From: Hyaloraphidium curvatum SAG 235-1
Lineage: Eukaryota; Fungi; Monoblepharomycota
Direction: 5' to 3'
Length of the DNA stretch: 64,000 bases
Assembly: GCA_025558095.1 (NCBI GenBank)
Contig: JAIVFI010000047.1
Coordinates: 1-64,000, forward strand
Below the pieces are notes generated by a model, which worked only from the letters and a program-made list of their open reading frames with translations, was not told the origin of the DNA and searched no databases. Both the position numbers and the translations under genes were made by a program. Shown here piece after piece: positions 1 to 25,693 of the stretch. Within the stretch, counting starts at the first letter, position 1. Every line of letters starts with the position of its first letter.

Positions 1-1
1 C

Positions 2-604
2 GCAGCGGCGGAGACTCGGAACGCCAAGGCCAACGCTACCCGGCTTCCGATTACCTTCCGCCCCGGCGACCTCGTGCTCATCTGGGGACCAGAACGACCG
101 CGCAAGGGCGAGCCGGGCAAGTTCGTCTCTCGTTATCTTGGGCCCTACCGCATCGAGGAGTCAGGCCACACCGACCTCACCTGGAAGTGTAGACACGTCT
201 ACGAGACCGACCACGTCACCACTGTGCATGTGGACCGGCTGGCGCGCTACAAGCCTTGGGAGTCGGCCACCTTCAACGCGCGCTCGTGGAACGCACGCGC
301 CCCGGAGCTCGCCGCCGGTGAAGAGCTCGATCTCTCGGAACCGGTGAACGAGTTCGAAGAGGAAATCGAGGTCGAGAACGCGCTTGGGAACGAGCAGGAG
401 TACACCGTCGAGGACATCGTCGGCCACGAGGGCCAGGGTCACGGACTCAAGTTCGAGGTCAAGTGGCGGGGCTTCGCTCGCACGACCAAGCTCCCTCTGG
501 ACATGTTGCACGGCGCCATAGGGATCGTCCGCGCCTATGCCGATCGCGTTGGTCTCCAGCTCCCGACGGGTCTCCCCAGGCGCATGCGGACTCGGCGTCG
601 CTAG
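2..604 (+). CDS. pol: Pol C-terminus: integrase GPY/F region + chromodomain (5'-partial)
   Basis: Open from base 2: FRPGDLVLIW...KFVSRYLGPYRIEE...VHVDRLARY, then EYTVEDIVGH...KFEVKWRGF (chromodomain Y/W/F); TAG at 602-604. Confidence 0.92.
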   Translation, partial: AAAETRNAKANATRLPITFRPGDLVLIWGPERPRKGEPGKFVSRYLGPYRIEESGHTDLTWKCRHVYETDHVTTVHVDRLARYKPWESATFNARSWNARAPELAAGEELDLSEPVNEFEEEIEVENALGNEQEYTVEDIVGHEGQGHGLKFEVKWRGFARTTKLPLDMLHGAIGIVRAYADRVGLQLPTGLPRRMRTRRR

Positions 605-674
605 TAACACCAACGACGTCTATCCGGTCACAGCACTACCATCTCTGTGCTCCGATCCCCGGCTTTTCACTGAC

Positions 675-1660
675 TCAAACCCGACGTACTACCTCGAGCC
701 TATCCTCGACCCCCTCGAACGCCAACTTGTGATACCCGGACTGAAAATGCGTGTTCAGATTGCCCAGGAGGCCCTTAGCCTTGTGCTTTACCAGATGGCA
801 CCACGGGAACGAGCATACCGCCACTTCGCCCTTGGTGGGGCTCCGGTACAGTTCGCCGGCGTACGTTCCGGCAATCTTCCATCGGAGGAAGGAGCCTGCC
901 GGCACGGCATCAGGGACCTTCTTCGTCACCCGTTCCGCCTTCAAGCCCCAGACCGGCGACGACTTCTTCATCTGGCACATTCAGTGACGATCAGCGCTTG
1001 TGGGGCGTACTCCCGTCGAGCCGTTCACCTGCGCAATCTGCTCCCGGGCCTCCCCGCGCTGCACCACATGCCCCTCGTCTTTACCTGAAGTTGCCGTTTG
1101 GGCCGTCTGGAAGGCGCTCCCTTGTTCAGTGGCGGCCTCGAAGTCGCCTAAGTGGTCCAGCTCCCAAGAGGGCGCATGAAGCGTGACTGACAGCACGGGG
1201 ACTTCGTCGGCCGCCTCGAGCTCCTCCCTCGAGTCCGCCGCCGACTCGCCCTCGCCGACGGAAGGCGCACCCTTCGACGACATCGCCGGCAGGAAGACGC
1301 CGGAGGTCCGGGTTGCGGCCGCGGCCGCGATCGGGTCGTTGCCTCTGGCCCCGCCAGCCTCGCGCAGCTTGGCGGTCCCGCCGGCCTCGCGCAGCTCGGC
1401 GACGAGCCGACGGAGCACTCGGACCTCGACAACGACGTTCCCAGCCTCTTCGGCCAGCGGCAACATCCCGCGCATGGCGGCCAGACGCACCAGTTGCAGG
1501 AAGCAGTCGACCACGTCGTCCTCCTGGCGCGGCGCTGAGCTCCCGTTCGAGGACCACGCCGCTACGCTCTTACCTTGGTGCACAGCAGGACGTCGAAGGT
1601 CGGCAACCGAACCTCGAACCACGAACTCGGCGGGACGACGTTCGGCAGCTCCGCACTCAT
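675..1660 (-). CDS. Antisense 3-exon accessory gene (~292 aa) with C-terminal C2H2 (U1/matrin- or BED-like) zinc finger
   Basis: Exons 1660-1574, 1523-1029, 971-675; phase-0 introns 1573-1524 (GTAAGA..CCAG, 50 nt) and 1028-972 (GTGAAC..GCTGATC..CCAG, 57 nt); C-x4-C-x16-H-x5-H motif CSFPWC...NLNTHFQSGYH. Confidence 0.7.
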
Positions 1661-1799
1661 GACAGGCGCGGAGATCCCCCCAGCTCTTCTGGACCCTACG
1701 TCGCGATCCCCCGCGAGCGCTTTCGTCGACGCAATGGCGTACGGCCCTCGCTCGCGCCCCGTCCCCCGTGGCGGGGACTGGTGACCCGGTGTGCGGGCG

Positions 1800-1936
1800 A
1801 ACTCGCGGTCGACTCGACTCGCAGTTGACTCGCGGTTGACTCGCGGTTGGCTCGCGGTTGACTCGCAAGTGACTCGCGAGTCACTCGCGAGTCGCTCGCA
1901 AGTCACTCGCGAGCGACTTGCGATGCACTCGCGAGT
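1800..1936. repeat. Tandem array of ~12 degenerate 11-bp units, consensus GACTCGCG(A/G)(G/T)T
   Basis: gactcgcagtt gactcgcggtt gactcgcggtt ggctcgcggtt gactcgcaagt gactcgcgagt cactcgcgagt ... read directly. Confidence 0.95.
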
Positions 1937-1953
1937 TGCCTGCGCTTCGCACC

Positions 1954-1960
1954 ATATAAG
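1954..1960 (+). promoter_or_regulatory. Putative TATA box of internal promoter
   Basis: ATATAAG in GC-rich DNA, ~20 bp after the array and ~70 bp before ATG 2029; same layout as 3623-3631. Confidence 0.6.
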
Positions 1961-2028
1961 CGGCGGACCACAGGAGGCCGCGGCCGCGGACTACGCACCC
2001 AACGTCGACCTCGCCGCTACCGTCTCCC

Positions 2029-3294
2029 ATGGCGACCCCCACGACTGCCGGCCACAACCTGCGGCCCCGCCGGCCGCATGTGGCCACGGCGCCGCCGCCG
2101 GCGACTGCGCCCGTCGCTGCGTTGCCTGGCGTCGTACCCCCGGACTATCGGTCGGCGCTTGCCTCCCTCTCGACCCGGCTGGACGACCTCCGGGCCGACC
2201 TCGACGTCAGACACTCCCAGACGACGGCCCACTTGCACAAGGTCGAGCAGGCCGCCTTCTCCGCGGTCATGCCCATCCGCGCAGCCCTCGACGCACTCCA
2301 CCCGGTGCTCAACACCCTCGTCAATGTCGGCAACCTGGAGCAGCACGCTCTTGACCGCGTAACGGCGACGCTCGAGCAGCAAGAGGCCCGCCTGGACGCC
2401 CAGATCCGCCAGCAGCGTGACGAGCTCCAGGTGGTCCTCAGTGGCCGCCACCGCGAACTTGAGTTCGCCGTCACCGCCTTGCGCCGGACCGACGACGCTC
2501 GTCTCGGTGCCATCGAGACGCAGCTCGACCGGCTTGCGTTGGTGCTCGAGGCTCAACGTCAGAACTTCAACGGCATTCTCCTGGTGGACGAAGCTACCAT
2601 CGAGGAGTTGAGGGAGTTCGGCTCTTCCCTCGCCGGGCTGGTTGCTCAGACCGGGACCAACCTCGAAACCACCATCGAGACCGTCGTCGAGACCAATCTC
2701 GCCCGTCACAACAATGGCCCCATGGCGGAGTTTGCGGCCGACCTCAAGAGCGTCCTGGCGGCCCATCTGCAGCGATTTGGGTCGGAGCAGCACAAGCAGC
2801 TCATGCTTTCAGCTCAAGACCACACCACGCTCCTCACGGCCGGCCTGAACGCGCAGCGCGAGCACTTCACCAAGACCGCCGACGAGCAACGGGCCCTCCT
2901 GCGTCGCTTCCTCGGCAATCAAGTGGCTCCCCTGGCGGGGCAAACGACGCCCGCCGTGGTCACCTCCACGCCGGTCGGCCGCGTCAAGGACGAGGACCTC
3001 GTCACCTCCGACGATGAGGCTGGGGATATGCAACCTCCAGCTCCTCGCCCCGAGAGCGTGTCCAGCAGCGACGCCTCCTCCATCGTCTCGCAGGACGACG
3101 GCCTCTTGGCCGCCCTGTACGACGACATCCCGGCCGCTCCCTACAAGTCGACCATGCCCCCGGTCTACACCCCCTCGGCCGCGGACGGCTCAGCCGTGCA
3201 TGCCGCCTTCGCTCTCGACTTTACCCGCCGGCTCCGCGCCCCGCCGCCGAGCGACGACGAGGCGGACGCCGACGTCGACTTTGAGGACGCCTAA
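2029..3294 (+). CDS. Intronless accessory ORF (421 aa), long helical/coiled-coil core, acidic low-complexity tail
   Basis: Long ORF with GC3-biased codons, heptad-like LxxLxxRL segments, located between pol and the PPT. Confidence 0.75.
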   Translation: MATPTTAGHNLRPRRPHVATAPPPATAPVAALPGVVPPDYRSALASLSTRLDDLRADLDVRHSQTTAHLHKVEQAAFSAVMPIRAALDALHPVLNTLVNVGNLEQHALDRVTATLEQQEARLDAQIRQQRDELQVVLSGRHRELEFAVTALRRTDDARLGAIETQLDRLALVLEAQRQNFNGILLVDEATIEELREFGSSLAGLVAQTGTNLETTIETVVETNLARHNNGPMAEFAADLKSVLAAHLQRFGSEQHKQLMLSAQDHTTLLTAGLNAQREHFTKTADEQRALLRRFLGNQVAPLAGQTTPAVVTSTPVGRVKDEDLVTSDDEAGDMQPPAPRPESVSSSDASSIVSQDDGLLAALYDDIPAAPYKSTMPPVYTPSAADGSAVHAAFALDFTRRLRAPPPSDDEADADVDFEDA

Positions 3295-3421
3295 GCCACC
3301 CTTCGGCCCTACACTCTCCAACATCTGTTGTCTCCACCTCGGCCTTCAACATCTTCTACTGCAAGCATGACGTCACTCCGCGGAGGAGCTTCGATTTCGT
3401 GGCGCCGAGGGCGGCGCCTTC

Positions 3422-3436
3422 TTTTGGGTGGGGGCG
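3422..3436 (+). other. T-tract + polypurine-tract-like segment
   Basis: TTTTGGGTGGGGGCG directly before TG at 3437. Confidence 0.55.
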
Positions 3437-3792
3437 TGCGAAGGTACAGGACGTCTGACATTCGGACAAGGGTATTTTCATTTTCGGTTCGGAGGCGTGG
3501 AGGCGTCGGTCCTCGCGATCGACTCGTGATCGACTCGCGATCGACTCGCGAGTGACTCGCGAGTCACTCGCGAGCGACTCGCGAGCGACTCGCAAGTGAC
3601 TCGGCACAGCCACCCTCCTGGGATATATAAAGAGCGGGACATGTAACAGTACAATCTTGATCGCCAGTTGACTCTACGTGCTCTCCGTGTCGTTCGACCA
3701 CCGTGCGGAACCCCGCCCGGCCGGATCCTCGTTCTGAGAGCCCTTGGGACGCACCCCGGGAGACATCCCGTAACCTCTTTCCCCCGGCTACA
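3437..3792 (+). repeat. Putative 3' LTR (TG...CA; end uncertain)
   Basis: Begins TG after PPT; contains 11-bp array and TATATAA (3624-3630); candidate end ...GGCTACA 3792; second LTR not in window. Confidence 0.5.
3510..3603. repeat. Second tandem array of 8-9 11-bp GACTCGCGAGT-type units
   Basis: gactcgtgatc gactcgcgatc gactcgcgagt gactcgcgagt cactcgcgagc gactcgcgagc gactcgcaagt. Confidence 0.95.
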
Positions 3793-3874
3793 GTCAAGTA
3801 TCTTCAGCGCTGTTCGCTTATTCATATTCAGGGCCTATCCGACCCGAAGAGCCGAGCGGGATTCGCGCGCCGGG

Positions 3875-6097
3875 TTAGAGCTTCAGGCCCGGTTCCGACC
3901 CGGACCGTCGCACTCCGATCTTGCCGGCCGGCAACGGGATGACGGCGGTCGGCATCACAACCGTGGGAGCCACGAGGGCGGCCTCGTTCGGCCAAGGCGC
4001 CGCTGCCGTCGATACCGTGCTCATCTCAGGGATGGCGGAGGGAGGGTCGTTGCTGGGGACGGGGAAGGCGTCGTCGGCTTTGGGCATGCTCATGACTGAG
4101 GGATCCCAGGTCAGCGTCGAGCCCTGGATGTCCTTCCACTTCTCCTGCGAATCCTCCTCGGAGGAGGCGTCGGTCTTATGATCGGCCGCGGCGGCGCGCT
4201 TCCTCTTCATGCCGTAGTACGTCAGGCCGCCGATCGCACCCAGCGCCACCACCCCGCCCACGACGCCGCCGACAATGGCGCCGATGTTGCTCGGGGGCGG
4301 CGGAGGCGGCGGGGCCGCGGAGGAGGCCGAGACAGTCCATAGTCCGGCCTGCGCGCTCGAGCACGAGCCAAGGGTCACTGGCCCCTCGGATGGGACCTGC
4401 AGGCAGCCGGCCGAGGCGCCGAGGTTGGCATTCATGACCTTGGTGGTGCCCGAGGAGTTGAAGAGCGTCCAGTACGGAAGCGCGCCGACCTGCCGCCGCC
4501 GGCGCCCCGCGGATCCGCCAGGGCAGCTTTCGTCGAGCACCGAAGCCGTGGTGCCGGATCGGCGCACTTGGAGGCAAGAAGACCCGCGCTGCAGCAGGAT
4601 GGCCGACGAATCGGGCACCCGGCCGACGGCATACTCGCCCGAAGATCCATCAGCAAGCGAGCACTCCGGGTTGCAAGAGAGACCTTTGGCACCGGAGGCA
4701 ATGAAGATCTTGGAGCCGGGTTCGATCGTCACGGATGTCGCCCCTGCGGGAAGGACGACGGCGGAGCTTGGAACGCTGGCAAAAGTTGTGCCCGAGCCGA
4801 CAGTCGATGTAGCACCTGCGACGGGTGCACTTGAAGTCGTGGCAAAAACGGAGCTCGTGGTGGCCAGCAGGGAGGTCCTTGAAGACGGGACGAGGAACGT
4901 CGAGGTAACGAAAACAGCATTCGAGGTGGATATTGGCCGGAACTGGCAGACGCTGGACGAGCAGCCCGTCGAGTCTGCAGGGCAGCTCGCCCCGCATCGC
5001 CCGCAATGGTTCCGGTCCGAGTCGGTCGAGACGCAGAAGCCGTTGCAGTTGGTGAGCCCTCTGGGGCAGACGCATCTGCCGCCCGAGCACGACTGTCCGC
5101 TGGGACACGCAGTGCCACATTTTCCGCAGTTTTGCGCGTTGGAATCGAGCACGACGCAATTGACGGAGCTCTCGCTGCCGCAGTTTGTCTGGCCGCTGGG
5201 GCAAGTTGGACGGAACTGGCAAGCGCCCGAGGAGCAACCGATTGAATCCGTGGGGCAGCTGTTGCCGCAGTGCCCTGAGCAACAAAAAGATGAGAAAGAT
5301 GCGCTGGCTGTGTGCAGGTTGTTGTGGCTTACCGCAATTGTTGCGATCCGAGCTGGTGGCGACGCAATAGCCGCCACATTCCTTCTGCCCGCTCGGACAG
5401 TAGCAGTTGCGGCCCGAGTTGCCGTCCGACGTGAAGCCCGGGTTGCAGGTGCATGATCCGCCCGTGCACGACGAGAAAGCACCGCAGTTGACTCCCGCGC
5501 AAGGATCGATTGGACGGCAGTTCCTTCCGTCGTTGGAAGACGAGGTGTAGCCGGAGTTGCAGGTGCACGTCCCGCCGGAGCAGGAAGAGTAATCGCCGCA
5601 GTTGACGTTGGCGCAGGGATTGGCTGGCGGAGGCGGAGGACCAGCTCCAACACAGCGGCCACTGGAGCACTGCGCAGAGATCCCAAGTCAGCGATGCACG
5701 GAAGTAGTCTACCGAAACCACAAAGCAGCACCGATTCTCCAGCCCCACATCTGTTGTTCAGTGACCCACAATGTAAGTCATTGTTGTCGAAGTCGAAATA
5801 CTTCATACAAAACACGTCGTATGCTGGGCCATCACTGCAAAGGCATCTTGACAAAGCGCGAACACATTGATCAAACAGAGGGCCAGGACAGTCGCCATCG
5901 GAGTTGCATGGAATGTAACATAGGCCGGCGGGATCAGAACACTGAGGAAACGACCATCAATAAAGGGTGACCTCCTTTTACCATGTGCTCACCTTCCACC
6001 CTGTTGGACACCCGTTCTTGCATAAGGGGTACTTCTGGCTCTCTACCACTTGCGCAGAGCCCAACAAGAAAGAGAACACAACGAAAATGACCGCCAT
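3875..6097 (-). CDS. Multi-exon single-pass membrane protein: signal peptide, Cys-rich Stig1-like repeats, S/T stalk, ricin-B-like lectin region, TM helix
   Basis: MAVIFVVFSFLLGSAQ signal; repeats NAQNCGKCGTACP / DRNHCGRCGASCP; CLQV..LGSC..GLW; TM IGAIVGGVVGGVVALGAIGGLTYY followed by KRKR. Confidence 0.75.
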
Positions 6098-7231
6098 CTT
6101 GCTGCCGGTGAAGAGTTGCGTGCCGGTCGTGGTCATTGTGATCCTACGCAGCAGAATGGGCATTCGCGGACAAGCCAAGGCCAAGACACGTCTCTCGAGG
6201 TGGTGCAGGCAGGTAGCGAAAAACAAGCAAGGAGATCCTTCTAGGGCCTCCGGGATCTTCGGGACTTGCGGCGCGGCCGTAGTGGCCCGTCGAAGCGACA
6301 GCCCAGGAAGACGCCGAAGTGATGAAATGCGGCCGAGCCTCAAGAGTCCTCACCGCGCCGAAGGTCCGCAGCCGCCACCGGGTCCGTTTCCGCGAGGGGC
6401 AACGACTTCCGAGCGGCGTAGCAGCGCCGACCGGTCTTCTCCTCCGCGCGAGATGCCTGCACTTCGTTTGATTGACTGAAACTGGCTGAGACAAAGCCAA
6501 AATCGGGCCCGCCCTTAGCCCCGCCGTTGCGGCTGTACCGGCTTACGTCGATCCCGGATCATCCGCCGACGCATTGTAATTTTGTTCCGCGCCTGCTGCG
6601 GGCGTCTCGTGGCCCCCGTCCTCGCCCCACGGCCCCCGCGCAAGGCTGACGCCCCATCCAACCAGTCCCCCTCCCCTCCCTGCCTTCCTCCCAACTCCGA
6701 TAGCGATTCTCGCCGTACGCCCACGGCGCCTATCACCTCCCGACGCCCCATCCACCCTTCCCTCCCCGCGATCACACCCCCCTCCTCGCGCACAACCCTA
6801 CCAACGCCAAAGCCAAATCGCCAAATCGGTTATCGTGCCGACCTGCCCGCGATCAGGAAAAGTTCGCCGAGCGTCAGAAATAGGCTTTGCGTCTATCGCC
6901 CGCGAGTAGCGCCCCGCCGCCGCACGCTGCTGCGGTCCCTCGGACAGCGATCACGGAAGTCTGTCAATCACGGAAAAGTCAGTCAATCACGAAGTCAATC
7001 AAGTCAATCAGAGGCTGGCAGCATCTGCGCAAGTCACTTCTGAGGCAGTCTCGCCGAAACCGAGCCCAAAGGGGCCCTGCGAGGTTGGTGCCGCGCGCGC
7101 GTTCGGCGGAACGGTCGGCGGCGCGTGCTGGACCCACCCGTCCGTCTCCGCCACCCAAGGCCGACCTGACGCTCCTCCACTGCCACCGCCAGCCTGCTTA
7201 CCTCCCCGCCCTTCCGCTATCAGCAAAGAAA

Positions 7232-8110
7232 ATGGTCCGCTTCGTGATCCTGCTCGCTTTGGCCCTGCTCGCCGCTGCGGCCGCCCCGGTTTCGGCACAG
7301 TCCTACTTGCAGGGCTGCGGGTTCGGGTTCTCCTGCTGCGGCGAACCGCTTTCGAGATTGCAAAATCAAACGCTCATAAGCTGCGATACAGCCTGCAAGT
7401 CGGATGATTACTGCTACCTATACAACTTCAAGATGGACACGGGGGACTGCATCTTCTTCCCGGCCAAGTGCGGCGGCAGCGGCAGGGCCAACCTCACAGG
7501 CTGGATGTTCAACGGCTACCCCGGGCAGTGCCCCGATCGGGACGGCCTTTGCAACCAGCCGCTGCGTTACGCCGCCTGCGGCTTCGGCCGGCAGTGCTGC
7601 GACGTCCCACTGGCCTACTCCCTGGCGTCGAGCCGCCAGGAATGCGAGCTCTCGTGCGACATGGATCTCAACTGCCGGGTCATTGCGTACAGCTCCTCCA
7701 CGAGCTTGTGCTACCGCTACGGCCACACGTGCACCAACTACCGGGCGGTCCCCGGATGGGCCCTCAGCGCCAAGCCCGGCGCCGGCCTCTGCCCCGCCCG
7801 CTCCGGATGCAAGGTCAACCTCCGCATCAACGTCCCTAACCGCACCGTCAAGAGGGGCCAGCACGTCACGCTGACCGCCACGGCTTCCAACGCGGACACG
7901 GGTCGCGCCGTGGCCAGCATCCAGATCGTCTTCCTGATCGGCCCGATCGTAGTCGGTAGGGCAAACACCAACCGCCAGGGGGTGGCCAGCCTGCGGTACA
8001 GGTACCCCGCGAGCCAGTCGCTGGGGAGGAGGCAGATCACGGCGAGGTTCGCGGGTTCCAGCAGCTTCAATGCCGGGTCCGCGAACGCGACCCTGCAAGT
8101 GAACCGTTGA
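7232..8110 (+). CDS. Secreted protein: two PAN/apple-like Cys domains + Ig-like (Big-type) C-terminal domain
   Basis: Signal MVRFVILLALALLAAAA; two C-xxx-C...C..Y...C repeats; VTLTATA...TNRQGVASL...ITARFAGSSSFNAGS. Confidence 0.75.
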   Translation: MVRFVILLALALLAAAAAPVSAQSYLQGCGFGFSCCGEPLSRLQNQTLISCDTACKSDDYCYLYNFKMDTGDCIFFPAKCGGSGRANLTGWMFNGYPGQCPDRDGLCNQPLRYAACGFGRQCCDVPLAYSLASSRQECELSCDMDLNCRVIAYSSSTSLCYRYGHTCTNYRAVPGWALSAKPGAGLCPARSGCKVNLRINVPNRTVKRGQHVTLTATASNADTGRAVASIQIVFLIGPIVVGRANTNRQGVASLRYRYPASQSLGRRQITARFAGSSSFNAGSANATLQVNR

Positions 8111-8466
8111 TCCGGCCCCTGTGCGATACTTGCAATTGGATTTCTTTCGGATGGTGCAATCGTCTCGCATGAAGTGCGGTTGGGATTGTCGACCCCGAGT
8201 GTAGTGTTCTAGTGGAAACGGTGTGACTAAATTGATTTATCATCCGCAAGCGTCACGCTTCGGGACCGCGCCCTTCTCGGCCGCCGCGCCGTCCTGCCCT
8301 CCGCCTCCCCGAACCCGCGATCCCGCGCGCCTTCCATCTGCTGCACACCGTGCGAATCCGATCCGGTGCTCCCGGCGCGCCGATCCGATGCCGCCCAATG
8401 TCCGTGCCCCGGGAGCGACCGATAAGCATCCCAGCGTCTTCGCCCGAGCCCCGTCCCTCGCCGCGA

Positions 8467-9324: not shown

Positions 9325-10661
9325 CTTTCGGTCGGGGAGCGGAGAATGGGTGAACGCGGGAAGGGGACGGGTGTCCCTGACAAGGCTGCGGGCGGGATGG
9401 GGGCGGGGGATCGGACAGATGCCTCCCTTCCCGGACGGGGGCGGATCAAACGCGGGGCGGCATCTGACAAGCCGATCGGTCCGTCTGCTCGTCGAGAACC
9501 GCGGTTCGGAAGGGGAGGACGATCGGACGCGTTGTTTGACTGACTGACTTGCGTTCGCCAAGAGGGCTCCCCTCTGTTCGGCTAGCAACCCGCTGCGAGC
9601 AGTTCGGACGCCGCCAATACGCACGATCGAACGGTCGACCATCGCTGATGGGATGGAATCCGTCTGTTTGTCGCCGCCGCCGGCGAGCTGAGGGCCCAGC
9701 GCGCGGGATGCCGCAGGCTGTGCTTCCGCACGCACGCGACAGCGGAAGCCGCCGGTGTTTGGCAGCCTGCTGCTCGGTGGATGTCGATCCAGACTGCAAA
9801 GGATGCGCGGGAATAGGACGCCGGATGTCGCTGGCACCGCCCGGTGGGGGTCGGTCGGCGGGCTGGGGCTTCGGGTCCTGGGAGAGGGCAGAGGCGTCGA
9901 TCGAAGGGGTGCTTGGAACCGTCTATCGAACCGATCGGCCGCCTCTCCCTGCGGATGATTTAGCACGCCATCCGCATTGCCGATCCCCGCCCCCTGCGGT
10001 GCCGCCCCGGGTCCGCCTCGGTACGGTCCCCCGCGCTCGAAGAGGAAGGAGGGATCGGCGCGCCGCGGCGCCTCCCCCGCGGGGGACCCGATCGGCGGCC
10101 GGAGGCATGCTGCGGAGGCTGGCTGCCAGCTGCGATTGCTGCGGCGCGGGGGGATCGGGCGGCGGCCGGGGGTTGTTGGGCCCTTGCTGTTTGTCCATCC
10201 AGGCCCCAGCGCGAAACCAGCGAGGGCTGGTGGTGTGCAAGTCCCCCGAGAAGAACCCCCACAGCAGGGGTTTGCCAGCACCTGTGCGGCGCGCGCGGCC
10301 GCGGATCCAGGTGCGTTTGCTGCCGGCGGGCGGGGCGGGCGGGGCGAGCGGGGCGCGGGGCGCGCGGGGGTTCGGGAGCGCGGCCGTGTTTGCCGGTCGC
10401 GGCGGCGCTCCGCCCAGCGCGGCGCCGCGCCATTGAATTCGGCCGCGCCGCGGATCGGCCGCGGGAGGGCGGCGCGCGGCCGGCGGCGCGCGCGGCCGGG
10501 CGGGGAGCGACGCACCGCGCACCCCGGGCGACACCCTCCGCCCGCCACGTCGATCGGCGCACGCCGCATTCTGACCGCCGCTCCCGCACTCCGCTCCTCG
10601 TCGCAGGCTTCCGCCGGCCCGCACACGCCGCATGGCTTGAGCCGCGCCCGCAGCCCCCGCA

Positions 10662-12435
10662 ATGGACCCCATGGCCGTCGACCCGCCGGCTGCCGACCCG
10701 GCCGCGGACGCAAAGCGCGGCGCGGACTCGGAGGACATGCCCATGCCGGCGCCGGGCCCGGTGCCCAACGTGGCCGCTCCCGCGCCCGCTGTGCGCATCC
10801 CCGCGGCCGCGGCGGGTGCGCCGCCCGGCCTGCTGAGCCCCGCCAGCGAGGCGCACGCCTCGGAGGACGCGGTCATGGCGCTGCTCTCGATGAGCAACGG
10901 CCGCGCGAGCCCCGGCCCGCAGGCGACGCAGCCGCTGCCCGCTGTGTTCGTGTCGCCTTCGACGCCCGTGACAGGCCCCGCGCAGGCAGCCGACGGCGCC
11001 GACCCGCCGCACCCCACGCGCAAGCGCCGCTCGGAGGACCTCGCCGAGGCCGCAGCCGCATCCGCCGCGGGCGGCGCGCACTCGCCGGACCGCAGGCCGT
11101 CCCCCGAGCCCGCCGACCCCGCGCAGCGCCCCCGCTCCCCCTTCCAGCACCGCGCCCACTCGCCGCAGCACCACGCGCGGCAGCTCTCCCCCGCCCTCGC
11201 CGCGCAGATGGGCCACGCCATGCAGGGCGCGTACCTCGTCGACTCCGCAACCGGCCTGCCCGTGCACTACGCCTTTTCCGGCGCCCCCGGCATCGCCTAC
11301 GCCCACCCGCACGCATACCCATACGGCTACCCCGCGCAGGCCGCGGGCCAGGCCCCGCACTCGCCCGGCTCGCTCGTGGCCGTGGTGGTGCCCACCAACC
11401 CCGCCTGGGCCGCCGGCGCGCTCGGCGGGCCGGGCGGCGTGGTGTTCCAGCACTTTGCCCCCGCCCATCAGCAGGGCGGCAAGCGCGGCTCGCTGCCCCC
11501 GGGCGGCTACGCGGCCTACCCGCCCGTGTTCCCCGTCTCGACGAGCCTCGCACCCGCGGGGTCGACCGAGTGGCCCGCGGGCTTCCAGCAGGCCGGGCAG
11601 GCCCGCCTGCACCCCTCTGGCCTCGTCCTGCCCCCGCCGAGCATGGTGGTCGACGAGGCCTCGTCCCCCGAGACCAACGCCACGAACCGCACCTCGCCCA
11701 GCGACGCCTCGCCCGTCTCGTCGACGCTGTACCCTGGCGACGGCAAGAAGTCGGCCTCGGACGCCGAGGACGCGGGCGCGAAAAGGCGCAGGGGGCACCG
11801 CCGCAACCTGACCGCCACCTCGACGGGGTCCGCGGGCTCGGCGCACTCGGGCGCGGCGTCGGCGGCGTCGTCGCGCGAGGCGAGGGTGTTCCAGTGCGAG
11901 CAGTGCGGCAAGGTGCTCAAGAGCTCGGGGCACTACCACCGGCACCGCAGGGAGGTGCACGAGCGCAAGCGCGACTACGGTACGTTGCCCCGGCGCGCCA
12001 TCTCGCTCTCCGTCCAATCTGACCATCCCGCCCTCCACGTTCACAGTGTGCACGGTGTGCAACGAGGCCTTCTCCCGGCAGGAGCACCTCTCCCGCCACA
12101 TGGCCTCCCACGAGCGCGGCACCGCGCACCCCGCCGTGCGCATGGCCGGCGGCTCCGGCTCCCCCGGCCTCTCGTCGTCCTCGTACGAGCACGGCAGCTC
12201 GCCGCGCTCGATCCTCTCGGACCTCGGGCCGTCGCCGGTGCTCGCGGCCGCGGGCCACCACGGCGAAGCGGGGGACGACGGCAGGTCCGCGTTCCAGAAG
12301 CCGGAGGGGGTGCCGGTGCAGCCGCACGGGGTGCAGGGGGACGGCAAGGCCGGGGAGGACCTGGTGGTGCCGTCGCCCATCTCGGCGGCGGCCAACCCGG
12401 GGGAGCACTTCTGGCGGGACGAGCGCACGCAGTGA
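10662..12435 (+). CDS. C2H2 zinc-finger transcription factor (2 fingers)
   Basis: FQCEQCGKVLKSSGHYHRHRREVH; intron 11980-12046; VCTVCNEAFSRQEHLSRHMASH. Confidence 0.88.
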
Positions 12436-12695: not shown

Positions 12696-14618
12696 TCAAG
12701 CCTGCACCGCGACGCGGTTGGCGGACGCGGACGCCGATCCCGCGCGCATCCCCGAGAAGGTGAAGGGCAGGTCGAACGGCGGCGACGACGCCACGACACC
12801 CCCGATCGCATCCGCCACCACCTCCCCCGTCGCCTTGCTCACGATCAACCCGCCCCTCTCCTCGTGCCCCCCCTCCTCCCACGCGCTCGGCAGGCCGAGG
12901 AACCGCAGCCGCACCACGGATTCGGCGCTCTCGAACGACGCCTCCATCCACCCCCTGCGCAGCCCGAACGCCTCGTTGACGACGTACACGGGCTCCCCCT
13001 TGAGCGGCTCCGCCGACGCGCGGAGGATCTCGACGCTGGTGAGGTACGGGTCCGTCCGGCGCTGCATGTGCCACGCGCCCTCGTCCCACAGCTTGACCAC
13101 GCTGCGCAGCGGGGCGGGGATGTCCGCCTGCGGGAACAGGACGCGGAGCTGCCGCACGAGGTGGGCTTCCCAGGATGAGGGGGACATGCCCGAGCCGGTG
13201 GCGTGGCGCCAGTGGAGCGCGACGCAGTCGCCGGCGACGTACGAGACGTGCAGGGCGGCTTCGCCCTTGGCGCCGCGGCCGAGGTACGGGACGACTTGGC
13301 CTGCAAGGCACGCAGATGTAAGGACCCATGGAGCAGTGGTCGGAGAGCGACGTACCGAGGCAATTGCCGGCGCCCGAGATGCCGTCGAGGTAGCCCGTGC
13401 TCCCGTTGGCGGCGATGATCGGCTCCCACCACGCGTGCGGGAACAGCAGCGCGGCCTTGAACGCGACATCGGGGTACGAGTGCCGCAGCAGCGGCGTGGC
13501 AAGGAGGTCCTCGGGCACGGCGCCGCGGATCTTGGCCAGCGCGAGCGGCGGCACGGCGAAGGCGACGCGCGAGGCGGTGAAGGTCTTTTCGCGCGAGGTG
13601 CGCACGGTGTAGCAGTCCCCGCCGCGGCGGCCGGCCGCGCGGCGCTCCGCGTCCGAGCAGCGGTCGACCTTTTCGACGGCCATGGCGACCGACATCCGCA
13701 CCACGCCGCGCCGCGAGAGCTCCTCCGTCATGAGCCGGGGCACGTTGCCGATGCCCCCGCCGACGGGGCGGAAGTGGTTCGAGGGTCCCGAGCCCCACAT
13801 CCGGAACATGTCCAGGCTCCAGCGTGGGTCGACGTCGTGGAAGGACGAGGTGAAGCCGCCGAACTCGACCTCCTTGAGGTACGAGACCGCCTCCGGGCCG
13901 TACTTGGCGAGCAGTATGTCGTAAAGGTCCGTGTACCCGCGCAGGACGCGCGTGCTTTCATCCGTAGGCGGCAGCTGCGCGATCAGGTCGGCAAGCACGC
14001 TGGCGTTGCCGAACGGACCGTCCGCAAAGACGGGATAAGCGGCCCTGCGCACGGCGCCGTTTTCGACCTCGGCCGAAGAGTAGATCTTTCCGCGCGCCTC
14101 GCGGAACTTGCCCTGCACCTGCCACCGCCGGAGCGTCATGTTGTACCGCTCCACCGCGCTGCGCCAGACTTTCGGGTTGTGGTCCTGGTCGATGCGCCAT
14201 CCGCCGAGCCCGACCGGTTCCAAATCGCCGCCGACGGGGTTGCCGTCCTCGTCCGGCCAATACCAGTCGTACGCACGGCCGCCGAACCGGAGCTCGCGCT
14301 CAAAGATGCAAATGTCGGAGGGCTTGAGGAGCTTGTGGTCCAGGAGCTCGAGGGCCAGATGGAGCCCTGTACGCGGACGGACGATCAGCACCCCGATACG
14401 CGTGCCCCGAAGGAAGCGGGGCCGCAATCGCGTTTGTAACTACCTCCGACGCCGCCTCCGACGATGGCCAGCTCGCAGTGGTCGGGACGGGCGCCCGCCG
14501 CGGCCGGGAGATTGGAATCGCCCGCGCCGAGTCTCCCACGCGCCCCGAGCTGGAATGCCGCCTGAATGCCCGCGCCGAGGCAGGCGCCGACGGCCAGCAG
14601 TGCTGCTGATCCGATCAT
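12696..14618 (-). CDS. Flavin-dependent amine / L-amino-acid oxidase family protein
   Basis: LAIVGGGVG|GL (intron 14443-14367), IFERELRFGGR, LGGWRI, intron 13355-13301, C-terminal NEAF..RGWMEAS. Confidence 0.85.
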
Positions 14619-14775
14619 GGTGCGCGATGCGCTCGAATCGGCGCGCACTGCGAGTGACGATCGTTTGGAAACCGCGTCCCGTCTGCTGTCCTGCGCGCAT
14701 CGCAACTGCAAACTCACGGACGGCCCGACCTTGTGATCACTCCCCTTCGACGACGGAAAGAGTTATATGTGGTTA

Positions 14776-16566
14776 CTAACTACACAAAAGCGGCTCTTCC
14801 GACACTTCGTCGTCCTGGCCCTCGGGATTGGGAGTGGGTCCTCTCGTCGAGGATACCCGGATCTGCTTCCACTCGTCCAGCTTCCACTGCCCCTCGCCGC
14901 CCTCGCCGTCCGGGTCCTCCTTGGCGCTCGTCCAGTCCCTCATCTTCTCGCAGAAATCGCACGCCCCCTTGAAGCCGTCGGCCTGCTTCAGCGCCTTGCA
15001 GGGGTCGCCCGAGGTGGCGATCTTGTCCACGGCTTCGCGGAGATCGGTGCCCGCAGCGAGCAGCTCGCGCGGCTCCACGGGGTCGACTTGGATCTGCCGC
15101 AAGCCGCTGTTCGGAGGTCAGCCACCACTTCGCGGCCAGCTGCGACAACACCCACTGGTAGGGGTTCAACAGGTCCTCATGATCGCGCATCTTCTTGAAC
15201 TCCGCCTTCGACAGGTACTCGTCCGACTCGGGCGACATCTGCTTGATGGCGTGAACGGCTGCGTGGAGCAGCGAAAAGAACGAGGCGGCCGGGTCGGAGT
15301 ACTGGAGGGCCATGGACTGGGCGGCCCCGCACTTGACGAGCAGCTTGAGCTTGGTGTCGCCCCCGACGGAGCTGGTTGCCGATTTCCGGTTGCCTCCGCG
15401 GCCTATTCCGGCCGTCTGCTCAATCTCCATGCGGATGACGCGGGTCTTGAAGGAAATGTGCTGCGAAAAGAGCTCCGTAAGCGTTTCGCGTAGGGAAGCC
15501 TCGTCGCTTGCGCTCACGAGGGACGAGAGGCCATGCTCCGTGATCCGCATGTAGAACGGGTAGCGCCCCAACTGCCCCGGTGTCCGGTTGATGTCGATGT
15601 CCTTCGACTTGGCCCAATTCGCCAGGGCAATGTGGATCTCGTCGCTCTTCGGTGCGCAGGTGAGAGGTAGCCTCGCGAAGAAGATGGATTACAACGAACC
15701 TTTTCGATCTTCCTCTTCTTGCCAGTCTGCGGAACGACGGGCAGCTCAAGAGCCGGGCTGGCGGGCCTCTTGCCGATGCTTTTGGGATCCGGCAGGTCGT
15801 CGTCGTCATCGCCGTCGTCCGCCTTGGCCTTGGCAGGTTTGGCCTTCGGTCGCCTCAAAGGGACCTTCTTTGCCTTGGCCTTTGGCGGCGACTGAGATGC
15901 AGGGTCCGTAATCTGGATCGGGTCCCCGACCGGGCTGAACTGCTCGGCAATGTCATCGGGCGGCAAGAAATCGTCGTCCGCTGCAGAGGCATGCCGACCG
16001 TTGGCATTCGAGCGCGCAGTGGGTCCCCTTTCGGCGTCAGGGGTCGGAGAAACGTGGTCACGAGGAGCAGGGTAGCGGGCGGAGCTCCGCTGGATTACTC
16101 TGAGCGGCGCCTTGCCCTTGGAGGCGGACGCCCCAGCCGGATCCGCGGTGAAGCCCGGAACGAAAGGCGCCGGTTCCCCCTTGGGGAACAGGGTAGCGTC
16201 CTCAAACGCCGTGCCGCCAGGGACTCGGAAGAGGGTGAAGAGGTGGAGCATGACTTGAAGACCGCTCGGCACAACTTCTTTGTGCTCAGGTTCGTCCCCT
16301 TCGGCGTGGCCCTCTTCGGCCTGTGCCCAACCGCGCACGAGCTTGCGGGCGACCTCCATCTCGGGATGGTTGACAAAGGTAACAAGATCGAGGAAACAGT
16401 TTCGTGCGTTGTCGGCGGCCGAGGGCGCCAAGGAGAGGCCCAGATGCGAGACCATCTTCTGGACCGTCGGGGCGAGGTTCGGAGGGAAGGTTCGCAGCAG
16501 GAAGGCCTCGACCGAGTGCGCCGGCTCCCACTCGTCCGCCATGTCGAACGGACGGCCGCCTATCAT
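14776..16566 (-). CDS. Hypothetical multi-exon protein
   Basis: Successive coding-like frames (16566-~15700, ~15650-15150, ~15100-14776) separated by GT-AG introns; no family recognised. Confidence 0.6.
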
Positions 16567-16757
16567 GCGCGGCTCCCGCCGAGAAGGAGCGTGCGGTTTG
16601 GAACTTTCGGGTGACTTTGGTCCCGCGAGCACTGCTGGCGGGAAGTGGGTCCAGCTGCATCCCGCCAACCGAAACCACCCAGGTCGATCATCGCAACAAG
16701 TGAATAAACGAAGTTTCATACACGATGCTGTGCTTCCCATAGCGGTCCTGCTCCCGA

Positions 16758-17769
16758 TCAGCAGCAGCAACCGCCACCCTTCGCGGGTTTCCATGGATGG
16801 TGAGAGAAGACGCAGAACTGAAGCAGCATGCCCACGCCGGCAAACACACCGCAGCCCACAACCATGCCGATCAGCGCCGGCGTCCAGTTCCAGCCGTCGA
16901 ACTCCTGGAATTGGCCCTTGAAGAGGACCGTGAGCATCTGGTTGAAGCCCACTTGAACGAAGAAGTCTGGGTTGATCCCGGTCAGATTCACGCTGCCTTC
17001 CGATCCAACCGCATGACGTACCGATGCCCCAGAACGTGGAGACCGACCCTGCGATCGAGGTACTGTAGGAACCCATCGCGTCAGCCAAAGCATCGAGAAG
17101 CAGGCACCGCCAGAACGGACCTGATGATGATCAAGGGCGTCTGCAGGAACCATATGGCGATTGCGCCGACGATCGCCAGCACCACAATGATCACGATGCC
17201 TCCCCACGAGGGAAGCACGTTGGACAAGAGCCCCGAGATGAACAGGCCCAGGAAGAGGCCTCCGACCGCGCCCAGCACGATGAGGCCGAGCTGCCACAGC
17301 AAGCCCAGGAGCAGGCCGCCCACGAGGCCGGCACCGGCAGTGACGCCCACATAGAGCCAGTAACGGTTGACGGGGTAGCCGACGCCGTTCGCGGGCTCAA
17401 ACACGTAGAGGAGCGTGTAGGCGATAATACCGAAAAGGTAGGCTCCCGCGAAGAACAGACAAATCCTGAACAGTCTGATGCCGAAGAGGCACATGAGCAC
17501 ACCCGCAACGATGGTGATAACGCCTGTGGAGCGAGGGAATGAGGGACGGCCAGGGGACTAAACGGCTTCCACTGACCCGCGGTGATGCCGGCCGCCGTGA
17601 TTTGGTTCGCGACCGTGTTCGGGTCGGGGAAATAGAAGGGGGGAGGCAGCTTCTGGGCGCTAGCCGCCAGGAAGTTGCCGATGAGGACGGCGAGGAAGAG
17701 GATGGCCTTCCACGCCGTGGCCAGGGGTTGCGACGCCGCGGGCCGTCGAGGCCCGCGGGCAGAGTCCAT
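16758..17769 (-). CDS. TMEM198/TM7S3-like (DUF4203) multi-pass membrane protein
   Basis: LMCLFGIRLFRICLFFAG, LGAVGGLFLG, STSIAGS..FWGID; three introns; ends GGGCCC*. Confidence 0.82.
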
Positions 17770-17949
17770 TCCGGTGAAGGCGCCGGCGGCGGACACCGGC
17801 GCTCTCCGACGCAAACATGCCGAGTGTGGTTGGCGTTCCATTGTGTAAGGGGGTCGTTCAGGCGCTTCGCTCTTTTGAGAAGTCGTCGAACGGGGCACAG
17901 CACCACCAAGCCCTCGGCACAGCCGATGCGCCGCAACAAGCCCGGATGC

Positions 17950-18130
17950 TGAGACGCCTGTACTCAGCGATACACTCGCAGGAGTCCATCCGTCCCTGCA
18001 GCTACCCGGATCCTCTCCCATGGTTGCTCCTGCTGCCGCTCAATCACGCCGCGGCAACCTCGCCCGCTTCTGTGCCCAGATCGACCTCCGCCTCGGTCAC
18101 CAATTCCGCCTTCCCCAAAAGTGGAAGGCC
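17950..18130 (-). pseudogene. Degenerate duplicate of the 3' end of the WD40 gene (19326-19506)
   Basis: Near-identical DNA; encodes ERIRVAAGTDGLLRVYR* versus ERILVAAGTDGLLRVYR*, with indels. Confidence 0.85.
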
Positions 18131-18748
18131 TTCTGTTAGCTGTCATTCTTTTCTTGTGAGCCCCTTCGGCGGGGATACTTGCCTTTACAACATGTTTCGA
18201 TTGGACCGCTATGACCGCCTTTCGTTCGGTCTGGACGTTGCTGATCGGCGTCGGCGTTCAACAAGGCTCCGTCGACGGGAGGAATTCCTCGTTCGTATTC
18301 AAGAACTGTCAATTCTCCCTTGAGTGAGCCATATAGACTTGTAGGTCGGCGCTAACTTGATTTCGTTGGGCAGCGTATCCAGCGAGTACTCATCAAGCGT
18401 TCGTTACGGAAGAGATCGGAGAAAAGCAATCCACGAAGATGAAAGAAGAGAACATAAGCACGGCTATCTTTTGGGGAAAGTCGAAAGAAAGACGCGAAGC
18501 GTCGTATTGGGATGGGGTGAAGTCCTTGGCAGCACCAGCCCCGACTTGGTCTCCCACCATTCACCCGCCGCCACCCAGTTTCACATTCCACGGCGACCGG
18601 CGGCCATCCGCGCGACAGACGGACGCCACCGCAGAGCCTTGCTTTCGGGTTGGTCGTCGGGGCGCTGCGCCCTGGGCTTGATGCGGTCTGACCCGGGCGA
18701 CCCCACCGCGCCGCGCCGCCCAGCGCCCCTCACCCACAGCCCTACCGA

Positions 18749-19128
18749 ATGGCCGCCTCCGCTCCCGCGTGGGTCACGGACTACTACAAGGTCGTCGACC
18801 AGAAGTCTATTCCCGCGCTCCTCCCCCATCACACTGAGGATTCGGTCATCAAGTTTGCAAACAACCCCCCCGCCGTCGGGCACGATGCCATCGCGGCGTC
18901 TATCGGCCCCTTCTTTTCATCAATTGCCGGGATGAAGCACCGCTTTGTCAACGTCTGGGAGCAGGGGCGGGGAGCACAGCCGTCCTCGAAGCCCTGGTCA
19001 CATACACCAGGCTCGACGCAAAGGAGGTCGTGGTGCCGTGCGTGTCCATCCTGGACCGCGACGTCCAACACGGAAAAGTGAAGGAGCTCAGGGTGTTCAT
19101 TGATTTGGCCCCGGTCTTCGCTCCCTAG
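18749..19128 (+). CDS. SnoaL/NTF2-like protein with a 1-nt frameshift (~18965-18972)
   Basis: FANNPPAVGHDAI...HRFVNVWEQ, then in another frame AVLEALVTYTRLDAKEVVVPCVSIL...LRVFIDLAPVFAP*. Confidence 0.8.
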
Positions 19129-19340
19129 TTTGTTCAAGCACAGCCGGGGAGGAACCAATGGAGGCTCTGGAAACGCGGACAGAGAGCCCCGGTTGCATGA
19201 GCAGCCCCAAAAGGTGGAGATCCGAGGAACAAGGAACGAATCATGGGGACATAACTACTCGAACAATTGTATTGCGACTAATAGCAAAGCTTGCGGAATC
19301 TGACCGTGCCGCCGTCCATGACATCCTGAGGTGCCTGTAC

Positions 19341-22011: not shown

Positions 22012-22176
22012 TGGTGGGTCGTCGCAGACTGTTTACGCATCGCCAGTCATCCCCCGTGTCCGTGTCCGCGAGGGCCACAAGATCCGATCATCTAGTCCTT
22101 TCTCTCCGACACGTTTCCACGTTCTCGTCAACCTTGCCTGAGCAACGAAGGCCCCAAACCTTCCTTCTAGGGCGAT

Positions 22177-24009
22177 CTACAACCGCATCCACACCTTCCC
22201 ACCCGCCAAATCGAACCTGAGCAAGCAGGTGATCACCGCCCCGAGCAGCAGCGTGAATCCGCCGTACATCTGCACGGGGATCCAATTGATCGACACCGTG
22301 CCGTCCGGCAAGGTGGTTGTCTGCGAATCGATGATGGCACCCCCGATAACGGGCCCTACGAGTCCGCCCGGCACGAACGCAACGTAAACCATGCCCAGAG
22401 TGGTCCCGATCTGGGCTGTCCCGAACGCCTTGACGAGCGTGAGCGGCAGCGTGCTTGCGTATCCGCCGGCCACGAAGCCGTACAAGAACATCAAACCCAT
22501 TTGGCTCGCAAACGTGAACGAGAAGGGCCAGAAAACCAAATCGCAGAGGGCGCCAACGAACACGCAGATGACGAACGTGTTTGCCGCACCCATTAGGTCC
22601 GAAGTGAAGCCCTGGAAGATCCGACCGAAGAAGGAGAAGAGGTTCAGGAAACCAACAAGATTGGCTCCCTGGTTCGCCGTCAGCCCGATGTAAACCGAAT
22701 AAAGTGGAGTGTAGATGGTGATTGTGAAGAACCCAAACTGTATGGCGAGCAGAGCACCGAAAGCAAGCCAGAATCGGCGTTGCCGGAGCTTGGAAAAGTC
22801 CAAAAGTGGTGCGCCGCGCAGCCGTGGAAACCGAGGGCGCATGGCGATCGCAACGAAGACATACACAATGGCCGCAACAAGCGCGGTGATGCGGAGCGCC
22901 CAACGGAACCCGAATCGGTCCAGCATCGCTTGCGTCCCCGGTCCTAATGCGAAACCTCCCATACCCACGCCTGTCCGGGACGGCCAGGTGAGCGTCGCGT
23001 TTGCCGCGCGTCTGCTCCATCACCTACCACTAACCGCGATGCCCATTGCCAAGCCCCGGCGCTTGTCAAAGTACTGCGGGATTATGCTAAGCGGGGGATA
23101 GTAGGTGAAGCTGGCACCGATGCCCTTGATCAGTCCTTGCGTGAGGAAAAGCTGCCAGAGTTCAACGGAGAAACTGGCCAGCACGAGCCCGACCACGTAA
23201 ATGCACGCCCCGGTAACCACGACATTGCGAGGACCCCAAGTGTCTGTTAGGCGGCCCGCGACTATCCCAAAAATTCCGAAGCAACCCGCACTGACGCTGC
23301 CGACAAGGGCAACGGCCCGGTTCGTGCTTCCGGGAAAGATTTGGTTCGAGTAGAAGTAAGATTGATAGACACCAAATGCCCCTGAAAGTGAGAGACGTGG
23401 AGGATCAGGACGTACTCTTATTGATGTCTCCGCTAAGCACTCACAGTCGCTTCCTCCAGCAAGAGCGCAGGTGAAGAAAGCGGCCACCATGACGAGCCAG
23501 CCCCAACCGCCTTCGGGAGGCGGGCCCAGGCGGGAGATCGTCTGGTTGAAGGACTCCGTTGCGGATAGTACTTTTTGCGGTCCGTCGCCGGGATCGCGAT
23601 GCAGTTCGTCACTGGGATCGTGATGCAGCTCCTCCATTTGCATGGTAAACTCGTCGCTATCCTCTTCAGCTCCTGCGTCCTTAGAAGTGGTCGCCGGTTC
23701 GTGCAGCACCGGCCGGTCCGTCACTTCCAAAGGCGGCGAGCCTTCCTTGGGCTCGAGGGAAGCCGGCAAGTGCGGTGAGCCCGAGTCCGACGCTTCGGTG
23801 GGGGCCACCGGCCCGTTTGGAACATCGCTTTCCGAGTCCTTCAACGTCCGCGAAACTGCCAACGGATCACTGTCCTGTTCCTCCGGCCGGCCAGGAGCCT
23901 CCACCGGCTGTTTCACTGCCGAGGAGTGCGACAAAGCCTGGGCCTTCCTGTCCGACCAATCGCCGTTCTCGGCCCGGACGCCAACGTCTATCGACGATCC
24001 AGTGTCCAT
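22177..24009 (-). CDS. MFS monocarboxylate-transporter-like permease
   Basis: PPEGGWGWLV, GRLTDTWGPR, QYFDKRRGLAMGIAVSG, two introns. Confidence 0.92.
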
Positions 24010-24135
24010 CTCTAGCCGCTGGCAGCGCTCAGCGCCAGCTGCTCCACTGGTGGTGGAGAGAAGTGGAGTGGGTGGCAAATGCCGCGCCGCGGCCCCGCCA
24101 CTACTGCCTCGTTGACGCCGCTCGCTCATCAGCCG

Positions 24136-24924: not shown

Positions 24925-24941
24925 ATCATCTGCAGTACCGG

Positions 24942-25445: not shown

Positions 25446-25693
25446 CTTTGTTTGGGTGACAGCGGCAGCGCGCGCCCGCGCACGCCGATCCTCTCATGCG
25501 CGCATTTTCGAAAATGGTAGAAGCCTACGATTGAATTGTTAGCTCCAGCTACTACACAAGCGAAGATTCTTGGGCATGTATAGGCGACGGAAGCTTCAAT
25601 CCACCGGCAACCATTACAATGGGGAGGGGGTTCGGGGACGAATGGACGTGCGGGATGGCCTCCAAAAGAAGATTCTTGAACAAGCATAGTCGG

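Follow-up and report, generated by a model that had tools for sequence, protein, structure and literature searches.

Genes and features of the locus

The window analysed in this study is a stretch of 64,000 nucleotides (nt) from Hyaloraphidium curvatum SAG 235-1 (contig JAIVFI010000047.1, positions 1 to 64,000 of the forward strand). Its beginning is occupied by the 3' part of a retroelement assigned to the Ty3/gypsy group, and an antisense gene with two introns (675-1660, minus strand) is located inside this element. Both introns are removed in RNA contigs, and both are kept in the multi-copy DNA of the element. The element also carries a sense open reading frame (ORF), which diverges from the antisense gene around an array of short repeats, and a long terminal repeat (LTR) at its 3' end.

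Four public sequencing runs matched part of positions 1-8200. Three of them are runs of the same organism, including two DNA runs (X1 and X3) and one RNA run (X2), and the fourth (X4) is a freshwater metagenome. Their contigs were placed on the window at a likeness of at least 95%; the records placed on 1-8200 numbered 1931 for X1, 474 for X3 and five for X4.

The 3' end of pol (2-604, plus strand) is an open frame that runs off the start of the window and ends with a stop at 602-604. It encodes the C-terminus of the integrase and a chromodomain-like tail. The Pfam match of this tail to Chromo is weak (E-value 0.0016; 18.8 bits, below the cut-off of 25.1; residues 134-159 of 200). The 3' LTR (3437-3912, plus strand) is 476 nt long with the ends TGCGA...TCGCA, and a purine-rich tract (GGGTGGGGGCG) lies directly upstream of it. 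Its boundaries were inferred, and are supported by the loose ends of contigs: X2 contigs carry foreign sequence before 3435 and 3437, and the loose ends of X1 and X3 fall at 3891-3914. From the pol stop (604) to this LTR there are 2.8 kb, within which the antisense gene is located. It is convergent with pol, and the two stop codons are 70 nt apart.

The depth of the X1 contigs was 229-313 over the pol end (1-548), 144-396 over the region of the antisense gene (549-1644), 198-440 over 1645-3288 and 2314-3270 over 3289-3836; in the host flank beyond 4111 (to 8200) it was 0-7. The DNA of the element is therefore about 25-60 times as deep as the host flank, and the terminal repeat is about 10 times more abundant than the rest of the element, where summed contig depth is a rough guide only to copy number. 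Since the depth of the antisense gene is like that of pol and far above that of the flank, the gene belongs to a unit that is repeated tens of times. Within the window itself, tblastn and blastn searches revealed no second copy of the element parts.

The copies are very similar to each other. Over 1-3912, differences at a level of 10% or more occur at just three places in X1-X3, and X4 adds two further differing places, each in one low-depth contig. The window differs from nearly all of the X1, X2 and X3 contigs at 175 (C>G), 3218 (A>G) and 3388 (G>T). The X4 records are five contigs, all short and of low depth, that share a likeness of at least 95% with pieces of the element (626-826, 2275-2982, 3748-3829), one of which lies over exon 3 of the antisense gene.

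Structure and coding frame of the antisense gene

An earlier note, made from the letters of the window alone, had described three minus-strand pieces that join through two phase-0 GT-AG introns into a frame of 292 amino acids, and all of these features are present in the sequence as described. Exon 1 (1660-1574; 87 nt, 29 codons) begins with the ATG at 1660-1658 and is joined to exon 2 in one X2 contig (record 11). Intron 1 (1573-1524; 50 nt, GTAAGA...CAG) is followed by exon 2 (1523-1029; 495 nt, 165 codons), intron 2 (1028-972; 57 nt, GTGAAC...CAG) and exon 3 (971-675; 98 codons and the stop at 677-675), which holds the conserved part of the protein. Both introns have GT..AG ends and are in phase 0. 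The spliced frame has 879 nt and a single terminal stop. Intron 1 shifts the frame, and intron 2 is in frame but carries one TGA; the single 292-codon frame therefore arises only via splicing. The minus strand has no ATG in 1661-1800, and the ATG at 1660 is the first downstream of the repeat array.

The composition of the frame is similar to that of the other genes of the element. The G+C fractions at the first, second and third codon positions are.69/.47/.81 in the spliced antisense frame,.68/.47/.81 in the pol end and.73/.47/.85 in the sense ORF. Among the six frames, the proposed one alone is free of stops in all three exons and shows this pattern of low second-position and high third-position G+C. 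By its composition the antisense frame looks protein-coding. The host introns contain branch-site-like motifs of the CTGAC/CTCAC kind; at the corresponding position, CTCAG and CTGAT/CTGAA occur in the two antisense introns.

The earlier note had also pointed out that the ORF track misses the gene. Neither of the two long minus-strand ORFs (678-980 and 984-1868) was found in a collection of 15 billion proteins, and the antisense gene is therefore unannotated. Exon 2 contains a tandem duplication of 27 nt at 1350-1401 (minus strand; 1.9 copies with a match of 92%). It encodes a nine-residue repeat (AELREAGGT/AKLREAGGA) in the acidic part of the protein.

Splicing of the antisense gene in RNA

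Only two joints were found in the contigs on 1-8200. One runs from 971 to 1029 and skips 57 nt, and the other runs from 1522 to 1573 and skips 50 nt (cut +1). Both have CT..AC ends on the plus strand, which correspond to GT..AG on the minus strand. These joints match to the base the junctions 1029/971 and 1574/1523, which had been predicted before any RNA was consulted. The joint 971 to 1029 is carried by one X2 contig (record 10; depth 198.3, shorter side 255 letters), and the joint 1522 to 1573 by another (record 11; depth 611, shorter side 82 letters). Neither joint was found in the contigs of X1, X3 or X4.

The assignment of X2 to RNA was examined on the host genes at 14001-34000. X2 shows 24 joints there, and the 15 that are listed all lack a counterpart in X1; the depth over this region is 20-1877 in X2 and 4.6-9.3 in X1. 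The joints confined to X2, together with its uneven depth against the even depth of X1, indicate that X2 is RNA. The listed host joints (15 of the 24) skip 49-93 nt with a median of 55, and their ends are CT..AC in 13 cases and GT..AG in two. Lengths of 50 and 57 nt are therefore ordinary intron sizes in this genome, in agreement with the earlier description of the two introns as host-typical.

The earlier note had reasoned that the two introns can survive retrotransposition, and the DNA runs bear this out. Besides the lack of joints in X1 and X3, a multi-copy DNA contig of X3 (record 17) covers 859-1526 with intron 2 unspliced. In the RNA run, the depth of the bin 823-1096 (157.1) equals that of record 10 alone with 57 nt uncovered (198.3 x 217/274). 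Therefore no X2 contig placed at a likeness of at least 95% covers intron 2. Unspliced RNA may nevertheless exist, since rare forms are lost from contigs.

The RNA contigs extend beyond the antisense gene on both sides. Record 10 reaches position 535, inside pol. Record 11 extends without a break over 3464-1441, spanning the whole sense ORF, with intron 1 removed. Sense and antisense RNAs that overlap may have been merged in this record; alternatively, the antisense transcript could start far upstream and have a long leader before the ATG at 1660. A contig over two genes does not show a single transcript.

The predicted protein product and its relative

Exon 3 was searched against 1,835,955,588 representative proteins, and two proteins were found at an E-value of 0.001 or below. 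The true relative is P0001 (E-value 4.2e-11), a protein of 274 amino acids deposited as 'hypothetical protein DFJ74DRAFT_753412 [Hyaloraphidium curvatum]' (KAI9034073.1). It is the only member of its cluster, and its annotation is that of an ordinary single gene, on a contig of 1.6 Mb. The other protein, P0002 (1752 amino acids, repetitive, E-value 4.3e-05), was judged to be a chance match to repeats and was set aside. A search with P0001 among proteins of near length returned only itself (1 of 1788 candidates). Pattern searches for relatives gave 172 matches in metagenome contigs and 49 in viral contigs, none of which was confirmed.

In pairwise comparison, exon 3 and P0001 share 39 of 90 residues (43% identity, E-value 2e-19), and exon 2 shows a short match (11 of 26 identical, E-value 0.003). 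The global alignment of the spliced product with P0001 is colinear across both splice junctions. At the junction of exons 2 and 3, GEAREQIAQ/MKK (the slash marks the junction) aligns with GEAQHQIASMPS of P0001, and the shared motif GEAxxQIAxM straddles the junction. At the junction of exons 1 and 2, LLCTK/EDDVV aligns with VLCSGNDLV, giving the motif xLLC/VLC-xxxDxV. The protein is divided by charge: exons 1 and 2 encode acidic parts (isoelectric points 4.7 and 4.6), and exon 3 encodes a basic one (9.9).

A putative metal-binding motif (815-729, minus strand) is located in exon 3. It reads CSFPWC, 16 residues and H-FQSGY-H, and consists of C53 (815-813), C58 (800-798), H75 (749-747) and H81 (731-729) with the spacing C-x4-C-x16-H-x5-H. 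P0001 has the same four residues with a longer middle spacer (C-x4-C-x18-H-x5-H), and in both proteins the motif is followed by HK-x-AFEGV. Two other histidines of exon 3, H59 and H63, are not kept in P0001. A Cys2-His2 metal site in the antisense product is plausible from this pattern.

The type of the finger is less clear. The BED signature is C-x2-C ... H-x3-5-H/C, and the U1-like or matrin-type C2H2 fingers have C-x2-C with H-x5-H. The antisense product resembles both in having two cysteines, a spacer of 16-18 residues and two histidines five residues apart in a basic domain; it differs from both in the cysteine spacing (x4 instead of x2). An hmmscan search with exon 3 and P0001 gave no Pfam family at E-values up to 10, neither the BED zinc finger (PF02892) nor a U1-like or matrin-type finger. 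Of the likeness to U1/matrin or BED fingers that had been suggested from the spacing, the four ligands conserved in P0001 and the H-x5-H spacing stand, whereas the x4 cysteine spacing and the lack of a Pfam match speak against it. In a language-model look-up, the nearest clusters of exon 3 (scores 0.92 and 0.90) and of the C-terminal part of P0001 (0.81 and 0.79) included some with zf-BED (PF02892) and zf-C2H2_12 (PF18658); by the tool's own figures such matches are leads and not evidence, and the top cluster bearing zf-BED has the BED family on only 10-12% of its members.

The divergent sense ORF and the repeat arrays

The sense accessory ORF (2029-3294, plus strand) encodes a helical protein of 421 amino acids without a known family. 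Its identity is 420/421 with P0011, which stands for three accessions of H. curvatum, and 99% with P0003, and it has been annotated repeatedly in H. curvatum as a hypothetical protein. Position 3218, one of the places where the window differs from the runs, falls in residue 397 of this ORF, which is Asp in the window and Gly in the runs and in P0011. The Pfam search of the sense ORF gave sub-threshold matches only, to Baculo_PEP_C (19.1 bits; cut-off 38) and to DUF2218. X2 record 11, whose depth of 611 is the highest of the element, spans the ORF without a joint; the sense partner is intronless, as had been anticipated for a gene read in the direction of the genomic RNA.

An internal array (1785-1962) of about 16 units of 11 nt (ACTCGCGAGTC), with the palindromic core TCGCGA, is located in the 368 bp between the divergent start codons at 1660 (minus strand) and 2029 (plus strand). 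A TATAA at 1955-1959 faces the plus-strand ORF. The U3 region of the LTR contains a similar array (3490-3631, plus strand), in which the 11-nt unit ACTCGCGAGTC occupies 3490-3623 and is followed by TATATAAA at 3624-3631. The internal and LTR arrays can be aligned with an identical block of about 36 nt. Each array is followed by a TATA-like box on the plus strand, and the length of the unit is about one turn of DNA. Ten of the 34 TCGCGA sites of the window are in the two arrays, and an eleventh site lies at 1701, between the internal array and the ATG at 1660. These features suggest that the array region is a promoter.

Other features of the window

To the right of the element, a host ORF (3875-5854, minus strand) encodes a Cys-rich and Ser/Thr-rich protein with a probable membrane span. 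It reads about 12 codons into the inferred end of the LTR (3912) and stops at 3875, and this host gene may harbour the element in its 3' end. X2 covers parts of 4372-5901 at a depth of about 5. Further along the window, the segments 10001-12000 and 40001-42000 have a G+C content of 0.78 and 0.74, respectively, and contain long overlapping open frames on both strands. The host ORF at 29079-32243 (minus strand) is highly expressed, with an X2 depth of about 1870. Its best library matches, from marine eukaryote transcriptomes, are only 56% identical, and the search with it yielded no protein of H. curvatum.

Proposed function and alternative explanations

The preferred interpretation, to which we assign a probability of roughly 0.75, is that a high-copy Ty3/gypsy element carries an antisense gene of three exons, that both of its introns are removed in RNA, and that the product is a nucleic-acid-binding protein which likely regulates the element. 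Antisense transcription would proceed leftwards from the 368-bp region between the two start codons. The array region might act there as a two-way copy of the LTR promoter with about 16 phased 11-bp ACTCGCGAGTC units, because the ACTCGCGAGTC units also precede a TATA box in the LTR. In the genomic RNA of the element the introns lie backwards and would not be recognised by the spliceosome; being unreadable in the sense RNA, they would be kept and copied into every new insertion. The product would consist of an acidic front from exons 1 and 2 and a basic C-terminal domain from exon 3, which might bind zinc and then DNA or RNA. It might serve as an accessory regulator, as has been proposed for other antisense ORFs of gypsy elements.

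Several points weigh against this interpretation. The RNA evidence consists of contigs from one run of one study, which carry no strand, ends or level; the contigs do not give the start of the antisense transcript, and record 11 runs across the sense ORF. That the antisense product is translated we infer from its sequence. The copies in the DNA runs are too alike to inform on selection. The family has two known members, and four kept residues at 43% identity make for weak statistics. The front halves of the two proteins are only faintly alike, with a local score of 53 against 35.0 +/- 6.3 for shuffled sequences, seven of 300 of which reach it. The Pfam search gave no family at E-values up to 10 for exon 3 and P0001, and none for the other two exons. 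A profile search of solved structures returned six matches (E-values 0.19-1.7), none of them on the motif. Structure prediction, which the earlier note had proposed for the spliced protein, did not settle the type of the finger: the AlphaFold2 models have a mean predicted local distance difference test score (pLDDT) of 43.1 for exon 3 and 31.2 for P0001, and are unusable.

A more specific scheme goes further than the preferred interpretation, and appears conceivable but unlikely; it draws on the analogy with the human CGCG element and the ZBED1 site described below. The antisense Cys2-His2 protein would be a sequence-specific transcription factor encoded by the element itself, and would bind the helically phased 11-bp ACTCGCGAGTC palindromes in a Tat/Tax-like feedback loop. 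The loop would drive or throttle the genomic RNA, the sense accessory ORF and the antisense gene itself, and the palindromes would be the building blocks of the LTR enhancer as well as of the internal two-way promoter. The gene of such a factor would persist with its introns in a retroelement only because it faces backwards.

The gene might otherwise be a passenger, a host gene that was captured as genomic DNA with its introns and renders no service to the element; P0001 or a kin of it would then be the host original. P0001, the sole relative, is indeed annotated as an ordinary single gene and forms a cluster of its own, and the capture of cell sequences is one of the origins proposed for such ORFs in the accessible parts of two papers (PMC7264820; PMC11963269). 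However, at 43% identity any capture from the lineage of P0001 must be old, and the frame, the splice sites and the coding composition are still intact across tens of copies. The gene also has a fixed layout with a repeat-array promoter, as predicted above, that would be used by the LTR as well. We regard this origin without function as quite improbable.

A role of the spliced antisense transcript as RNA, by pairing with the sense RNA or feeding RNA silencing, with the 292-codon frame untranslated, is very improbable in our judgement. RNA is seen and protein is not, and sense and antisense RNAs would overlap here, since pol and the antisense gene converge with their stops 70 nt apart and record 10 reaches 535. 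Open frames are also common at 65% G+C (80 ORFs of at least 50 amino acids in 9 kb), and regulation by antisense RNA has been described for retrotransposons such as Ty1 (PMC12786077). On the other hand, the codon-position composition is like that of pol and the sense ORF in the sole frame of six that is open and has this pattern. Both introns are in phase 0 and restore one frame, and the homologue of 43% identity is colinear over both junctions with its Cys and His residues kept.

A chance frame combined with an assembly artefact is close to refuted: GC-rich DNA does give long open frames and each junction comes from one contig of one run, but two independent joints of GT..AG type and host-typical length fall base-exact on junctions predicted from sequence, X2 shows like joints in host genes and none appear in DNA, and a significant homologue (P0001) exists.

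Comparison with known systems

Antisense ORFs (aORFs) located between pol and the 3' LTR of Ty3/gypsy elements form a class termed aORF-3R. As far as the available parts of two papers describe them, they include gene23 of maize Grande, that of RIRE2 in rice, ORF4 of Silene Retand with a TRP28 domain, ORF2 of Phaseolus PvRetro13, and brtn of Boty in Botrytis cinerea and Sclerotinia (PMC7264820; PMC11963269). According to the same parts, gene23 has its own promoter and a nuclear product, TRP28 is predicted to bind DNA, and tandem arrays lie near the ORF in Retand (PMC7264820; PMC11963269). The antisense gene of H. curvatum (675-1660) is found downstream of the pol stop and upstream of the inferred 3' LTR. 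Its coding strand is opposite to gag-pol: pol is read on the plus strand, whereas both the open frame and the orientation of the GT..AG introns place the gene on the minus strand. It has its own antisense RNA, in which the minus-strand introns are removed, and appears to be carried by the copies of the element (X1 depth 144-396 over the gene, 229-313 over pol and 0-7 in the flank, depth being a rough guide). By position, orientation and expression, the gene belongs to the aORF-3R class, which is defined by position and not by homology.

Further likenesses are the lack of clear database relatives and the nuclear or DNA-binding regulatory role that is suspected for the known members. Retand is similar in having tandem repeat arrays in the region from pol to the 3' LTR. 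Pfam detected no TRP28 (PF04195) or SMC domain in the three exons or in P0001. The main difference from the class is the presence of two spliceosomal introns, verified by RNA, in the antisense gene. Moreover, the gene forms a divergent pair with the sense ORF around a copy of the LTR repeat array, and the host is an early-diverging fungus of the Monoblepharomycota.

A review of aORFs calls for attention to antisense and spliced transcripts, and the word 'intron' does not occur in it (PMC7264820). The open-access literature searched contained no account of introns in the antisense ORFs of LTR retrotransposons; of its papers that mention both Hyaloraphidium and retrotransposons, none deals with the retrotransposons of this fungus, as judged by titles and abstract openings. 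Backward accessory genes in gypsy elements are known, and working introns in them have hardly been described. Retroelements are expected to be free of introns, as they pass through a spliced RNA, and a backward-facing gene escapes that rule; the present locus gives base-exact RNA proof of an intron-bearing antisense gene in an early-diverging fungus. Antisense accessory genes in gypsy elements are known to date mainly from plants and Boty; the present case shows that they can be ordinary multi-exon genes, which ORF-based transposon annotation and repeat-masked gene calling would both miss. The gene also adds a protein family of two known members, neither of which is functionally annotated. With respect to the chromovirus branch of Ty3/gypsy, the Chromo match is below the cut-off (18.8 against 25.1 bits), and only the pol end lies in the window.

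The antisense genes of deltaretroviruses offer another comparison. HBZ of human T-cell leukaemia virus type 1 (HTLV-1) is spliced and encodes a bZIP protein. As in the H. curvatum element, a protein is encoded opposite to gag-pol near the 3' end and is expressed from a spliced antisense transcript. The antisense promoter of HTLV is in the 3' LTR, according to the part of the source available (PMC11963269), whereas the promoter of the present gene would be internal, and its product has no bZIP and no sequence likeness to HBZ.

The repeat arrays recall a promoter element of vertebrates. In the accessible text of one study, the palindromic 'CGCG element' (TCTCGCGAGA) drives two-way transcription in human promoters, and the related hDRE site TGTCGYGAYA is bound by the BED-finger factor ZBED1, knockdown of which had no effect on the test gene of that study (PMC6192621). 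A palindromic TCGCGA core, in known promoters there and in predicted ones here, is common to both systems. The fungal retroelement differs in having phased arrays of 8-16 units of 11 nt, for which a promoter role is predicted. Its divergent accessory pair around a copy of the LTR array provides a compact system in which to ask whether a retrotransposon carries its own regulator.

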